A DNA stretch of 64,000 nucleotides, taken from positions 92,628,001 through 92,692,000 of the forward strand of contig OX597820.1 of assembly GCA_951406725.2 (NCBI GenBank). The letters are read 5' to 3'. Below are positions 10,013-60,262 of the stretch, piece by piece. Source of the DNA: Octopus vulgaris. Lineage: Eukaryota. The stretch's first letter is position 1, and the number at the start of each line of letters is the position of its first letter. The position numbers and the translations under genes were made by a program. A model generated the notes under the pieces. It was given only the letters and a program-made list of their open reading frames with translations, was not told the origin of the DNA and made no database searches.

Positions 10013-10094
10013 TGTTTGTGTATGTGTGTGTGTGTGTGTGTATAAAGATAGATATATATATGTATATAAATATATATATATGTATATAAATATA

Positions 10095-10662
10095 TCACCT
10101 TCACCTTGATCACCTTGACCGACCAGTCCGTCAGGCGTCCATTTGACACCGCTGGTCACAGCACGCTGGACCATATGTTTACTCTAACGCAACTGCTTGG
10201 GCGAGCAAATGAGTACAAGCTGCCTCTTTGCGTTGTGTTTATAGACTATGAGAAGGCCTTCGATAGCGTCGAAACCAAAGCAGTGCTGAACTCGCTGCAG
10301 AGGCAAGGAGTCGAAGTGCAATATGTGCAGCTGCTCAGAGAGGCAAATTCCGGATGCACCACCGACATAGCTCTACTGTCATCACCCATACGAGTGCCAG
10401 TCGAGAAGGGAGTGAAGCAAGGAGATACAATCTCTCCAAAACTTTTCACTGCATGTCTCGAAAAGTTCATCAGAGGCATCGACTGGCAAGGTGGTGGCAA
10501 CATCAATGGCGAGCTCCTCACCCACCTCCGTTTCGCTGACGACATAGTACTCATCACTGAAAACACGGATCAGCTTCAGACCATGCTGACGGAGCTCGAC
10601 ATCAAAAGCTCTGCAGTAAGTCTCAAGATAAACCGCATGAAAACAAAGTACCAACAGGTCGA

Positions 10663-10665
<3 letters not shown>
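10095..10665 (+). mobile_element. RTE-clade LINE reverse transcriptase fragment
   Basis: Open frame with STLDHMFTL, FIDYEKAFDSV, GVKQGDTISPKLF and HLRFADDIVL; truncated, with (TA)n on both sides. Confidence 0.95.
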
Positions 10666-10747
<82 letters not shown>

Positions 10748-11180
10748 CATGCATATATGTGCGTGAGCTTGTGCGTGTGTGTGTGTATTTAGAAAATTAT
10801 CTCCGCTTCCACTAATATAATAGATTCGTTAGGCAATTGAAAGTGAATACTAAGATTCTGTAATTCAATCTAAGTTATAGAGAATGATTCCGTGAGATTC
10901 AAACATTCGGAACAATTTCGGTTATAGCATTGAAAACATTCGTCCAAGATATACGTCGTTAAATTATTCAGTTTCAGAAGATCTATCGTATTACTGAGAT
11001 GTTCTTTGCTAAAATATTTAAATCTTTAATGCATAACTATTTGCTGTACTTGTATGGATAAACATATAAAATACTACCGTCCTTGAACGTTCAGACACAC
11101 ACACATACAATACACAAACATGCACACATACATGTATACATATATATATGTGTGTGTGTGTCTATATATATCTTTATATA

Positions 11181-30942: not shown

Positions 30943-32130
30943 TTAAACATTGATTACTCTCACCTGCAGCTTTTGATGTTGCTTATTGTTTCCTCTTCCG
31001 AATAGCTCTTTTGCATGACTCATGCTGAATTCTCTCCATCTCAAATAATCCCACAACATAATATAAAGTATTTTTTTTACACTTTGATCTATCAACAGCT
31101 TGTTCTTTCCAGTTATAAATAGAAATAGCACATTTGATCTTAAGTTGATATTAAGAATGTCTTTGTACCGCTGTTTAGGTTTGAGGTTTTTTTCTTGTTT
31201 CAATTTTCCATAAAATATTTGCTCTCGAATTCCGGTATTTCTCATTCGAACAAGGTGTCCACTTCCCCTTAAGACATTCCGATCGATGATAGCTTCGATC
31301 GTAGTCATTTGAGCTGCCTGTAGAACTTCGGAATCCGGAGTATGTGTAATCCACTTCATATTGAGTATGTCTTCAGCAGTGTTGATGAAGCCATTCGAGT
31401 ATCTAAACTTGGTATTTGTGGAACATTCGAATTTCACAGCCATGCAACAAACTTGACAGCACCCAAAATTTGCTGATGGATTGTCTCTGTTCCTAATCTG
31501 ATCCTGTGTTGTAAGCAAAGACTGATTCCCATATCTCCAAATGCAGTCGAATCCTTTTCCATACTTGCATCATCTGACTGAGAGCACACTTCCTAGATAA
31601 ATAACGACACTACTAGTGACTTTGACTTAACATATGCTTTTCGAAGAGCAACCTGCAACATAATTTCTGTTTTCTTCAAATTCATTTCCAAGCCAACTGA
31701 TTTGCATAATGCATTAAGGAGTGTATTCAGATCCTACAGCTTCTTCCCAGTGTAAGATAGTAAATTATAACCATTAGCATATAATAGTGCCTTGACAATT
31801 GACCCAAACACTCTGGTATCTGCGTCAAGTCTCATGGTGATGAACTTCTAGATCAGATGTAGATTCCCTTAGTCTTACTTGTGAATGCTACCATGAATAC
31901 TGATGGAAAGTAAAGAGCAAATAACGTTAGAATGATAATGCTTCCTTATTTTACTTCAAGTTCTACATGAAAATCTTCAAGTAAATTACAATTTAAGTAC
32001 ACTCTAAATTTCATGTTGTCATGCAAAAATCGTGTCGGGTCGTAAACATCTTTAACACATTCCCTAGCATTTATCTGTCAAATGTCTTGATGAGATCAAC
32101 AAAGCATTGATGCCAATCATGTGACTGTAA
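30943..32130 (-). mobile_element. RTE/BovB-like LINE relic, tail-to-tail with the preceding copy
   Basis: ILNMKWITHTPDSEVLQAAQMTTIEAII...GHLVRM...QIFYGKL...KPKQRYKD; FVDLIKTFD near 32090. Confidence 0.8.
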
Positions 32131-53380: not shown

Positions 53381-53415
<35 letters not shown>

Positions 53416-53419
<4 letters not shown>

Positions 53420-54625
53420 ACGAAACGGAATCCCCCCGTCGTCGCTCGCCCGAACGGCTCACACAAGTTCCGCCACGGAACCCAAAGAGGCGGAGAGAGG
53501 AGAGATACAGATAGATACTGCCACAACATCAACAGCACAGAGATACAGAGGCACAACCCGAGATACAACCCAAAGAGGCAAGGCAACAACTGGCAACACT
53601 GGCTTATATTCAAACAACAGTTTATACGACAATTACAATGTTACAACATCAAGATACATCAAAGCATGCACGTGACTACTCAATACATAATACAACATCA
53701 TGTAACAATATATCAGTCCGGAGACGCAACAAGTCATATACAGTATTTCAAAGGTACACGTCCGAAGACACAGTTCTCTAAAGTCTCTTTTTCTAAACAT
53801 CACAAATAACGTCACATCAACAAGTCCTTTACTCTTCAATTCACAATGTCCTTTATCGACTATATCGACAGAGTCCTTGTTTTTAAACACCACTGTTCTT
53901 TACACCGTGACACATATCAATGCACAAAACACATACCTCAATTCTCAATTGAATCTGCCAGTGTCCCATTCCTCTCAATCCTGCTAATTCCTCTGATTAC
54001 TGCCAATTCCTCTGCATACTGCTAATTCCTTCTGTACATATCCCAATCAGTGCCGCCAAGCCTCCGCATCCCAGCTTGCTCCCAAGAATTCCAACGCTTC
54101 CAAGATTCCATCTACTCGCTCTGACTTCCAGAATCCCACTGTCTTCTTCGAGGACCGGCCAACGACTGCCAGATCCGTCTGTGTTCTTCGACGACCGCTC
54201 AACGACCCCCCGACCTCACTTCGTCTCTGTCCTTCTTCCACTCCCCTCATCTCCCTCTGTCTATATCGCTCTTACCCTTTCTAATTGCTATCTGATTCCT
54301 TACTCTATCTATATCGCCTACTGTCTCTTAGCCTCTCTATCTGCTCTCTGATCCCTTAGCCTCTCTATCTGTCCCTTTTCTCTTACTGTCAATACCCTCT
54401 CCATCTGTTCTTAGATTCCCTTAATCTGTCTTCCTCTTTCACTTCTTCAAGGGGTGCTCAGAATGACCTCCAATCGACCGCACAAGGTCAGAAAGGTCTC
54501 ATTAATCTCCCACTAGACAAAGGACCCGTCACTTTTCACCAGACATACTGGAACCATTATTCCTATGTGGGTCACCAGAAACACTACACTAATTAAACCC
54601 GAAATGCACTTAGCCAACCGTAACA
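53416..54625 (-). repeat. 3' LTR
   Basis: TGTTACG...CGTAACA with 7-bp terminal inverted repeats; I found four differences from the other LTR. Confidence 0.97.
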
Positions 54626-54638
54626 CTACCCCCTACCT
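54626..54638 (-). other. Polypurine tract
   Basis: Minus strand AGGTAGGGGGTAG immediately before the 3' LTR. Confidence 0.85.
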
Positions 54639-56562
54639 AAGCTTTTGTCGACCCGACAAAGCATAACAAAACTCGCACCTCCGAGCAGCAGACTCTCCGG
54701 GGGCTGGGGGTCCCCTTGGGTGGTTTCTCCTCCGGGGGTCTCACCTCCCACGGCCACCACTTCAGCACCAGCCACAGGTTGGCACCTTCCCTCTGCGGCT
54801 TGGGTAACACCTCCGCCAACGCCGCCAGGCTTCCTACTAGCCGCCCACAATAGGCGCACCGTCCGAGGAAGTTCCTCAAATCCCTCACACAAGAAGGGTC
54901 CGGCCAATCCTTCACAGTGGCCACCTTCCTCAGGGCTCTATAGCCCACGTAGCATCTTGCTGTACCATCTCCATTCTGCGCAATTATCGCCGACGACCAG
55001 GGACCATTCCGCTTTTCCACTGTTCCCCGTCGCCGATATTTCCTCTTGCGCTGCTGTACTGAGACCTTCCTCCGGCCTCGCTGCTTCCTCAAGCGACAAC
55101 CGCCCTGGTCGACGAAACGTTCTGCCAGGTCCGTGCGACCAGCATCCAACAACGCTCGCGACCAACGTCCTGCGCTCTTCACCAACGGTTGCTTCTTCCG
55201 CAACTGCATCAGCGGACCACGATCTCCCTTAACTTCATCACTGCACCGGCAGAACTGACCCCGCCGCTGGTTTACCGTCCGGCGCAGTTCCACGATTTGC
55301 CCTCTGCAAATCGCCTGCGCAGCCTTCAATAAATCGGCCGACCCACCCAGCGCTCTGTCAGCCTCTGCCTCCACCAGGGTCCAGCCGACCCTCAATTGAG
55401 TTCCTATTCCGCACTGCATGTCGGGCTCCACCGGCTCCACGCAACCATCAAATACAGAGCTCCCCCAAGTGCCAACAAAGCACCAGCGACTCCTTGCGGA
55501 CCGCTTCCTCAACTGCATCCGTGGGCCACCACCTCCTTCAACTGCGTTGCCGTATCGGCAGAGCTGGCCCCACCACTGGTTCGCCATCTGGCACGATTCC
55601 TCGATTTGCCTTCTGCAAATCGCCTGTGCCACTTCCAAAAGATCGGCCGACCCAGCTAGCGCTCCACCAGCTTCTGCTTCCACTAGGGTCCACCCGACCC
55701 TCAATCGAGCTTTCACTAGGCACTGCCTGTCGGGCTCCACCGGCCCCAAGCAACCATCAACCACAAAGCTCACCCAACGCTGAAGCAGTCTTCCTGGTCT
55801 CGGTGGACCCACCACCGTTCGCAGCCGTCTCGCCTCGTCAACGGGCCTGGTCCTTTTCCTCACCAGCTTCCGTCCCGCAGGCCTCACAACACACACGCCC
55901 GGCCGCCAGTCCATCCACGCCTGTGGCCTCTCCACAGTGGGAACCATACAGTCCCTCTGGGCCCCAAGAGACAGGGGTCCAGACACCAAAGGACCCGCAC
56001 ACGGCATAGCACCTGCCGCGACCATCACACACAGAGCCGGAACCTCGGACTCAGCGACATTCGCCCCAGACCTCGCCAGCTCTTCGTCCTGAGCTCCGAG
56101 AGACAGGGGTCGAGATGCCAAGGGCTCCAGACACGGAACAACAGCATCAGCCATAACACCTTCCACAGGCCTTTTGGTTACTTCAACCTCTACGGGTTCC
56201 AAATCACAAGATTTCTTGGGTACAGCGTCACAAATTTCGGCAACCAGCCCAGGTTCCGCAAACACAGCCGGTCCAGCATCACAGATTTCGGCAACACTTC
56301 CTTCACTATCTGTTTCCCTCGATGCTTCGTTCGACGGGCAATCTCTGCCCACAGGACCGTCGCTATCCTCGGTCCAACACCGATCCTTCAAAGCTGACCC
56401 ATCCGCAACCTCAAGCTCCCGCTGATCTGCCCACAGGCCCTGTCGCCTCCTGTCCATTCTCTCCACGAACGCGTCCGTCTGCGCCATCTGGCCCCTTAAC
56501 ATCTCCACAATCAGAGCAAGCGAAATCTCCTCGTCTCCGGTCTGACAACCAGACAAATCCAT
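54637..56562 (-). CDS. 641-aa element ORF with degenerate Gypsy pol remnants and an internal 103-aa duplication
   Basis: First ATG at 56562 (MDLSG); GTVEKRNGPWSSAIIAQNGDGTARCYVGYRAL (RT N-terminus) joined to VKDWPDPSCVRDLRNFLGRCAY (RT thumb/connection); no YxDD motif. Confidence 0.75.
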   Translation of the reverse strand: MDLSGCQTGDEEISLALIVEMLRGQMAQTDAFVERMDRRRQGLWADQRELEVADGSALKDRCWTEDSDGPVGRDCPSNEASRETDSEGSVAEICDAGPAVFAEPGLVAEICDAVPKKSCDLEPVEVEVTKRPVEGVMADAVVPCLEPLASRPLSLGAQDEELARSGANVAESEVPALCVMVAAGAMPCAGPLVSGPLSLGAQRDCMVPTVERPQAWMDWRPGVCVVRPAGRKLVRKRTRPVDEARRLRTVVGPPRPGRLLQRWVSFVVDGCLGPVEPDRQCLVKARLRVGWTLVEAEAGGALAGSADLLEVAQAICRRQIEESCQMANQWWGQLCRYGNAVEGGGGPRMQLRKRSARSRWCFVGTWGSSVFDGCVEPVEPDMQCGIGTQLRVGWTLVEAEADRALGGSADLLKAAQAICRGQIVELRRTVNQRRGQFCRCSDEVKGDRGPLMQLRKKQPLVKSAGRWSRALLDAGRTDLAERFVDQGGCRLRKQRGRRKVSVQQRKRKYRRRGTVEKRNGPWSSAIIAQNGDGTARCYVGYRALRKVATVKDWPDPSCVRDLRNFLGRCAYCGRLVGSLAALAEVLPKPQREGANLWLVLKWWPWEVRPPEEKPPKGTPSPRRVCCSEVRVLLCFVGSTKA

Positions 56563-56600
56563 AGCGAAAAAGAACCGATCGAAACGCAGCAATCAGGACA

Positions 56601-56618
56601 ATCCCACTTCTGACACCA
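56601..56618 (-). other. Primer-binding site, tRNA-Leu(CAA) type
   Basis: Minus strand TGGTGTCAGAAGTGGGAT, 2 nt from the 5' LTR, complementary to the tRNA-Leu 3' end AUCCCACUUCUGACACCA. Confidence 0.9.
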
Positions 56619-56620
56619 GT

Positions 56621-57826
56621 TGTTACGAAACGGAATCACCCCGTCGTCGCTCGCCCGAACGGCTCACACAAGTTCCGCCACGGAACCCAAAGAGGCGGAG
56701 AGAGGAGAGATACAGATAGATACTGCCACAGCATCAACAGCACAGAGATACAGAGGCACAACCCGAGATACAACCCAAAGAGGCAAGGCAACAACTGGCA
56801 ACACTGGCTTATATTCAAACAACAGTTTATACGACAATTACAATGTTACAACATCAAGATACATCAAAGCATGCACGTGACTACTCAATACATAATACAA
56901 CATCATGTAACAATATATCAGTCCGGAGACGCAACAAGTCATATACAGTATTTCAAAGGTACACGTCCGAAGACACAGTTCTCTAAAGTCTCTTTTTCTA
57001 AACATCACAAATAACGTCACATCAACAAGTCCTTTACTCTTCAATTCACAATGTCCTTTATCGACTATATCGACAGAGTCCTTGTTTTTAAACACCACTG
57101 TTCTTTACACCGTGACACATATCAATGCACAAAACACATACCTCAATTCTCAATTGAATCTGCCAGTGTCCCATTCCTCTCAATCCTGCTAATTTCTCTG
57201 AATACTGCCAATTCCTCTGCATACTGCTAATTCCTTCTGTACATATCCCAATCAGTGCCGCCAAGCCTCCGCATCCCAGCTTGCTCCCAAGAATTCCAAC
57301 GCTTCCAAGATTCCATCTACTCGCTCTGACTTCCAGAATCCCACTGTCTTCTTCGAGGACCGGCCAACGACTGCCAGATCCGTCTGTGTTCTTCGACGAC
57401 CGCTCAACGACCCCCCGACCTCACTTCGTCTCTGTCCTTCTTCCACTCCCCTCATCTCCCTCTGTCTATATCGCTCTTACCCTTTCTAATTGCTATCTGA
57501 TTCCTTACTCTATCTATATCGCCTACTGTCTCTTAGCCTCTCTATCTGCTCTCTGATCCCTTAGCCTCTCTATCTGTCCCTTTTCTCTTACTGTCAATAC
57601 CCTCTCCATCTGTTCTTAGATTCCCTTAATCTGTCTTCCTCTTTCACTTCTTCAAGGGGTGCTCAGAATGACCTCCAATCGACCGCACAAGGTCAGAAAG
57701 GTCTCATTAATCTCCCACTAGACAAAGGACCCGTCACTTTTCACCAGACATACTGGAACCATTATTCCTATGTGGGTCACCAGAAACACTACACTAATTA
57801 AACCCGAAATGCACTTAGCCAACCGT

Positions 57827-57830
<4 letters not shown>
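56621..57830 (-). repeat. 5' LTR
   Basis: Direct repeat of 53416-54625. Confidence 0.97.
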
Positions 57831-57874
<44 letters not shown>

Positions 57875-57877
<3 letters not shown>

Positions 57878-58031
57878 AGGGGCTGTCTGGTAAGTAGCTT
57901 ACTTGCCAGCCACATGGTTCCGGTTTCAGATCCACTGCGTGGCACCTTCGGCATGTGTCTTCAACTATAGCTTAGGTCAGAGCGAAGCCTGGTGAGTGGA
58001 TTTGATAGCCGGAAACTGAAAGACGTCCGTC

Positions 58032-58032
<1 letters not shown>
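57875..58032 (+). mobile_element. SINE family A 5' half
   Basis: Head and body up to the internal (TA)n, where a fold-back element follows. Confidence 0.8.
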
Positions 58033-58064
<32 letters not shown>

Positions 58065-59854: not shown

Positions 59855-60262
59855 AGGCGCGGGAGTAGCTGTGTGGTAAGTAGCTTGCTTACCAACCACA
59901 TAGTTCCACGTTCAGTCCTACTGCGTGGCACTTTGGGCAAGTGTCTTCTACTATAGCCCTGGGCCGACCAAAGCCTTGTGAGTGGAGTTGGTAGACGGAA
60001 TCTGAAACAAGCTCGTCGTATATAAATGTATATGTATTTGTGTGTGTGTGTGTGTGTTTGTGTATCTGTGTTTGTCCCCACAACATTGCTTGACATCCGA
60101 TGCTGTTGTGTTTATGTCCCCGTAACTTAGCGGTTCGGTAAAAGGGACTGATAGAATAAGTACTAGGCTTACAAAGAATAAGTCCCGGGGTGGATTTGCT
60201 CGGCTAAAGGCGGTGCTCCAGCATTGTCGCAGTCAAATATCTGAGGCAAATAAAAGAGAGAA
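59855..60262 (+). mobile_element. SINE family A
   Basis: Full-length match to family A. Confidence 0.9.

Follow-up and report, generated by a model that had tools for sequence, protein, structure and literature searches.

LTR retrotransposon derivatives that cannot move by themselves are already known as a kind. The MaLR elements and zebrafish Bhikhari have an LTR pair, no reverse transcriptase (RT) and one internal ORF; the product of Bhikhari is Gag-like, whereas the octopus ORF described here has no capsid. Coronavirus defective RNAs reportedly need a long ORF, a requirement attributed to de Groot in 1992 and to van der Most in 1995. The interiors of mouse MT and ORR1 are described as encoding no protein (PMC5538554). 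In yeast, mini-Ty1 and mini-Ty3 are mobile without an interior, with proteins provided in trans, so long ORFs are not generally required, and the RNAs of Ty1 and Ty3 form one pool for translation and packaging (PMC4974528). The bovine D-type ERVK[2-1-LTR], like the octopus family, has an internal deletion, outnumbers its helper and recombines both within its clade and with that helper, and exchange during reverse transcription of co-packaged RNAs has been argued for it; it is reported to be without intact ORFs, whereas the octopus family keeps a full-length chimeric ORF (PMC10924933). Coronavirus defective interfering RNAs are likewise helper-dependent, in-frame chimeric deletion products in which translation outweighs sequence, as we propose for the octopus family, but they were studied in cultured virus with a mechanism established by experiment, whereas the octopus case is a germline LTR element whose behaviour is read from its copies (PMC8255065). 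In a literature search with incomplete coverage of subscription journals and Repbase, we found no account of this family and none of an open frame selected in cis among non-autonomous LTR elements. What is apparently new is a Gag-to-Pol frame that seems to have been selected to stay open yet drifts, with controls for age, frame and LTR.

The element occupies positions 53416-57830, within (AT)n-rich DNA, of the window, the 64,000-nucleotide stretch of Octopus vulgaris contig OX597820.1 that was analysed, and it and all of its features below lie on the minus strand. It has the parts expected of an LTR retrotransposon, namely paired LTRs with TG...CA ends, a primer binding site (PBS), a polypurine tract (PPT) and a short target duplication, although the ATAT flanks of this copy (53412-53415 and 57831-57834) both sit inside an (AT)n run. 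The 5' LTR (56621-57830; ends TGTTACGG ... CGTAACA) and the 3' LTR (53416-54625) are 1210 bp each and differ by 4 mismatches and 0 gaps, and the PBS (56601-56618) and PPT (54626-54637, adjoining the ORF stop) were both located, as the original prediction of near-identical LTRs with intact priming sites had it. The family shows a preference for ATAT-like target sites, the flank pairs in 23 copies with readable ends being ATAT/ATAT in 15, GTAT/GTAT in 2 and ATAC/ATAC in 1. The PBS is complementary to the 3' end of tRNA-Leu(CAA). The tRNA genes of this genome with which it pairs at that end contain introns, and their anticodon loop, inspected by eye, reads CAA; ARAGORN reported none of them without its intron option and labelled them Met when the option was on. 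The tRNA-Leu 3' pattern also recurs in dense clusters at G000:C29:8819758-8829116 and C4:81207468-81210198, the latter with a 542-bp period. A TATAAA hexamer (56826-56831, ~83% along the LTR) lies inside the most conserved LTR block, which is 93% common with L071, the complete relative introduced below, and recurs at about the same place in each of the 14 LTRs printed (80-86% along in 13 of them); it may be a candidate TATA box or a poly(A) variant. Elsewhere in the window are a 176-bp repeat pair with 80% identity, possibly a SINE (57876-58051 and 59862-60037), and open stretches that by eye resemble non-LTR reverse transcriptase fragments (10070-10792 on the plus strand and 30943-31569 on the minus strand).

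A 641-codon ORF (54637-56562) begins 57 bases into the ~2-kb interior and stops 11 bases before the 3' LTR, filling it as had been described, and holds remnants of Gag and Pol fused in frame, beginning at the start of Gag and running slightly beyond the end of Pol. Pfam returned no family for it at E<=1, an Atlas search gave only clusters without a name, and a protein search with the whole ORF gave a single match, the chimeric public gene model P0002, named Octopus vulgaris. The first 148 residues of P0002 are identical to the ORF of another copy (L022, G000:C29:29717778-29719763), and the model then takes in a gene with RING and Death domains that lies 4.4 kb downstream (G000:C29:29724215) and belongs to a large family with clusters on C29 and C31; P0002 may be an annotation chimera or a real exon capture. 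The C-terminal part of the ORF, used as a protein query, led to complete relatives, among which L071 is best preserved. L071 is a Ty3/Gypsy (Metaviridae) element with a young LTR pair (3/519 mismatches), a Gag with two zinc knuckles and sub-threshold Pfam matches to PNMA and SCAN, and a Pol with protease, RT, RNase H and integrase, the last with one stop. It resembles the window element in PBS (identical), PPT, LTR ends and 3' end, the last 55 interior bases being 91% identical, and the order of remnants in the window element, Gag, linker, RT and Pol end, is that of L071.

Read against L071, the ORF begins with a Gag N-terminal piece (56398-56544; aa 7-55, 43% identical to Gag 20-70), followed by a decayed second knuckle (56338-56379; aa 62-75) of which only the outer cysteines are left, whereas the older relatives L082 and L084 keep it intact as CX2CX4HX4C. 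The protease-RT linker follows (55471-55863; aa 234-364, equal to Pol 158-288) and then its second copy (55159-55467; aa 366-468), a 309-bp tandem duplication that is 75-78% identical to the first copy and missing from a short subfamily. An RT N-terminal remnant (54907-55158; aa 469-552) extends to Pol 395 and is joined directly to an 87-bp thumb remnant (54842-54928; Pol 543-583), with YxDD missing, and the end of Pol closes the frame. The fusion of RT remnants without YxDD that had been proposed from the window therefore agrees with the mapping to L071; the absence of RNase H and of the integrase core stood as well, and the zinc knuckle, first described as not recognisable, proved to be present in decayed form. 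Also absent are the capsid, the protease and the RT palm, so that relative to L071, with its protease, RT, RNase H and integrase, the window element is not an autonomous Ty3/Gypsy element, while its remnants trace to one with the order PR-RT-RH-IN. Gag and Pol lie in different frames in L071 and in one fused frame in the window element, and five of the DNA-level matches to L071 sit in the parent's frame (hand check from coordinates). Older derivatives (L079-L084 and L075) keep longer Pol pieces, and an intact knuckle is kept among them; in L080 and L082 almost every piece is in one frame, forming a graded deletion series. By this mapping the window element is a deletion derivative of its relative L071 in the same genome, and it arose from a parent with Gag and Pol through in-frame deletions, one step after another. 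The tRNA-Leu-primed autonomous Gypsy that had been predicted was thus found in L071, with the same PBS, PPT and 3' end and with LTR patches in common. A full 2-kb RT-to-integrase query matched four places (40 of 49 candidates scored), all four damaged.

Active trimeric dUTPases have five catalytic motifs. The L071 linker matches dUTPases in a profile comparison (E=1e-5), and its model (pLDDT 87.6) gives a Foldseek TM of ~0.6; folding the linker from its sequence alone gave no usable model (pLDDT 42). The structure prediction once suggested for the repeats therefore gave an answer for the parent's linker, on which the fold was tested: that linker is predicted to have a dUTPase fold, and the repeat in the window ORF would be a duplicated dUTPase-fold region, with its fold read from the parent. 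By eye, the motif-III aspartate appears to be missing in L071 and in both window repeats, Pfam dUTPase has no match in L071 or the window ORF, and no longer relatives of the linker turned up when they were searched for. Readings of the repeat as a death domain or as an integrase zinc finger were rejected, as it traces to the L071 protease-RT linker and not to integrase. Gmr1-type Gypsy elements place integrase before RT (PR-IN-RT), and a Gmr1-like order was likewise rejected, since the L071 integrase comes after RNase H. The metavirus type ancestral to the PNMA genes is reported to have a dUTPase (PMC11011659).

DNA searches gave at least 40 places at 89-100% identity (the best 40 of 116 candidates) and protein searches at least 105 matches (150 of 159 candidates scored). 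We examined 72 derivative loci, 40 from the DNA search and 32 from the protein search, the latter possibly favouring open frames; both interior ends were present in 59 of the 72. The long set comprises 45 distinct interiors of at least 1850 bp, with L010 (= L009) and the older L081 left out, reduced to 43 by removing two segmental duplicates and to 42 by removing the 78% outlier L088; the short subfamily set has 11 copies, with L085 left out. LTR pairs diverge by 0-2% in 31 of the 42 copies, which lie at dispersed sites: this is a non-autonomous LTR element that has moved recently without enzymes of its own. L009 and L010 (G000:C1:22478278-22483519) have identical interiors in tandem with one middle LTR in common, and L095-L097 (C28) are three copies in segmental duplicates that are 95-99% identical over kilobases, two of which are those left out. 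Four runs that we guess to be RNA gave contigs that span most of the interior and carry family-type variants; no fetched copy fully matches the variant they carry (best 26/30 sites), and they were not counted as evidence.

The frame is open through codon 590 in 22 of 42 copies, and whether it is open depends on age: among the 31 copies with both LTRs, 14 of the 16 with a divergence of at most 0.5% are open, compared with 5 of the 15 older ones (p=0.003). Across codons 1-590 of 43 copies, with variants read in the context of the copy that carries them, stops make up 0 of 353 shared and 10 of 492 private variants (p=0.007). Read in the context of the window copy, variants present in at least two copies include 2 stops against 8.9-11.5 expected, and those in at least three copies include 0 against 4.7-7.7 expected under context-matched nulls; in the two other sense frames, stop counts match expectation, with no deficit. 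Indels tell the same story. In the long set, lengths that are multiples of 3 account for 10/11 shared ORF indels, 13/30 private ones and 38/153 shared LTR indels (shared ORF versus LTR, p=2e-5), and in the 11 short copies for 10/11 shared and 11/21 private indels, with 4 stops, all private; with both subfamilies pooled, the figure for shared indels is 20/22 (p=3e-8). The ORF tolerates shared indels as long as 81 bp when they stay in frame, and shared stops and frameshifts occur only beyond about codon 604. Frame breaks thus come after insertion, privately and with age. The checks that had been proposed on sister copies, ORF retention and indel length, both came out as a selected frame would have it, and the outcome named as a refutation, random stops and frameshifts in sisters of like age, was not what the copies show.

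Omega by counting within the family is 0.74-0.94, not significant under a trinucleotide null, compared with 0.23-0.30 among complete relatives, which is the outcome of the proposed dN/dS check. Maximum likelihood gives 0.82 on 22 open ORFs and, at fixed kappa, prefers 0.8 to 1.0 by ~5 log units under a model that ignores context and recombination; tree-based omega is in any case limited because the copies recombine. Between subfamilies omega is 0.53-0.94, between the two internal repeats 0.71, and for deep pairs, in a protein-guided alignment, ~0.6. The repeats differ from each other at rates of 0.26, 0.23 and 0.26 by codon position, whereas the differences among complete relatives fall mainly at the third. 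The ratio of nonsynonymous to synonymous variants does not differ between private and shared sets (p=0.18), although private variants are an impure neutral control, ~179/260 being expected to postdate insertion. The protein therefore seems weakly constrained, with near-neutral amino-acid change.

On balance we favour, as rather probable, the view that this is a non-autonomous Ty3/Gypsy derivative whose long frame is kept open as its RNA needs translation to about codon 590. An RNA translated end to end would persist and serve a complete relative as template; the filter would act in cis, in the RNA phase, since under a product working in trans broken copies could spread as well. Given dozens of copies and a common helper, only a benefit to the carrying RNA can hold back stops, and we infer that openness is selected in cis during transposition. 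As judged from population data, stops and frameshifts lower propagation, and of the two roles first proposed, selection for translatability is preferred to a new or decoy protein on the openness, indel and age data. In its simplest form the requirement would be for ribosome transit, like that of coronavirus defective RNAs (PMC8255065). Such transit might protect the RNA from nonsense-mediated decay (NMD) or route it to particle assembly. NMD escape is a possible route (PMC2925335), but a simple NMD account is weakened because U3 is likely ~1 kb and the 3' UTR would be long even with a full ORF. A point against translation alone is that the traceable pieces all appear to lie in the parental frame, which a protein role would predict as well.

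An L071-type element would supply Gag, RT and integrase. Mean differences among copies are ~4x larger in LTRs (0.21; LTRs of 31 copies) than in interiors (0.05), LTR blocks change nearest relative along their length, and four-gamete pairs make up 55-73% of interior site pairs; the 5' LTR of the window element is itself a patchwork of blocks common to different sister copies. The copies are thus a diverse recombining pool with LTRs that are recombinant mosaics. Because the two LTRs of each copy are near-identical, these exchanges probably took place during reverse transcription of co-packaged RNAs. Some LTR patches are common with L071 (67-100% identity), which makes its lineage the best candidate for the helper; the L071 LTR had no match to sequence upstream of the PBS in L072 and L073.

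It is possible, though we hold it only tentatively, that the ORF instead encodes a cis-acting adaptor in which the Gag N-terminal piece docks onto helper Gag while the basic patch and thumb hold the element's own RNA; the rest would be free linker, and the open frame would be needed to join both ends, an arrangement we rate just as tentatively. The shared stops and frameshifts that are tolerated do start only past the thumb, near codon 604, both end pieces are kept across subfamilies, and the thumb remnant is present in 24/24 derivative loci tested, at 72-91% DNA identity to L071. Shared-variant omega falls to 0.33 for aa 1-55 (p=0.01) and to 0.35-0.38 for aa 553-590 (thumb 0.35, p=0.007), in small bins (15-31 variants) of which six were tested. 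The thumb's third positions are conserved as much as its first and second, which argues for RNA-level constraint or exchange with the helper. Predicted RNA structure in the thumb piece (z of -2.1 to -3.8 in three derivatives and -1.4 in a fourth, versus -0.9 in two complete relatives) is a hint only, and covariation in its predicted hairpins was not above shuffles, 45-421 of 500 shuffles reaching the observed values. The RT N-terminal remnant, with 14 K/R among the 23 residues of aa 490-512, has a net charge of +17 compared with +2 in the parent segment and 5.3 +/- 4.2 expected, and the Gag N-terminal piece one of -5 compared with +3.4 +/- 3.5, under a null that takes L071 as ancestor and ignores sequence context; against an adaptor, omega in the basic region is 0.8-1.0. 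Of the new or decoy protein once suggested there remain, then, small signals in the Gag piece, the thumb and the basic patch, on an ORF that overall changes nearly freely.

A product acting in trans, whether a decoy or dominant inhibitor of the helper, a pseudo-dUTPase with its own role or a protein kept by the host, seems very improbable. The duplicated region of dUTPase-fold origin and the few, damaged complete relatives would suit it, but broken copies would be free to spread and yet no stop is shared, both repeat copies stand at omega 0.7-0.96, and frames decay after insertion, contrary to host maintenance; a trans or host role is largely excluded. Least credible of all is that no selection acted and a G-rich strand (the ORF is 39% G and 59% GC), a shared A>G excess that cannot make stops and a few lucky masters left the frame open by chance, since simulated interiors reach 641 codons in 0/2000 shuffles, 0/2000 first-order and 3/2000 second-order Markov sequences, type- and context-matched nulls expect 5-12 shared stops with the deficit only in the ORF frame, the copies form a recombining pool (mean interior distance 5%, four-gamete fraction 0.55-0.73), and base bias cannot yield the pooled excess of multiple-of-3 indels, which refutes it unless the alignments are wrong; composition does not account for the open frame.

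The substitutions themselves have a signature. Among shared interior variants, A>G on the sense strand affects 73/344 A sites and T>C 26/359 T sites (p=1e-7), and A>G depends on the preceding base, with a rate of 0.37 for T or A, 0.24 for C and 0.10 for G (p=7e-7; 17/168 with a 5' G versus 56/176 otherwise). The pattern persists when polarised by L088, and private variants are without it; shared LTR variants have the strand excess with no significant context effect (p=0.27), and in the short subfamily the context effect is weaker (p=0.012). Animal ADARs in general disfavour a G upstream, and editing levels in octopus are exceptionally high (PMC5625713); APOBEC-type editing of retroelements is G>A, unlike the signature here (PMC2873906). 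The signature thus resembles ADAR editing of element RNA, although it may be a reverse transcriptase error bias. Editing of the RNA by ADAR, made permanent on reverse transcription, would let the protein decay faster with no stops created. It is tempting to go further and picture a Gag-Pol wreck becoming a new cis adaptor that pulls its own RNA into helper particles, with ADAR edits supplying much of the variation, but we consider this doubtful.

What the family offers is a population-genetic case, with internal controls, of an open frame that is selected with little selection on its protein, so that a long ORF in a transposon derivative does not in itself show that the protein has a function. 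The case suggests that germline LTR parasites, too, are shaped by a rule already known for viral defective RNAs, and since natural open and broken copies coexist in one genome, the mechanism is directly testable. If the A>G signature is due to ADAR, it would preserve cephalopod RNA editing in heritable form in the genome. Gene model P0002 already joins one copy of the family to a host gene, and long stop-free, drifting ORFs scattered through the genome are a plausible route to new genes.
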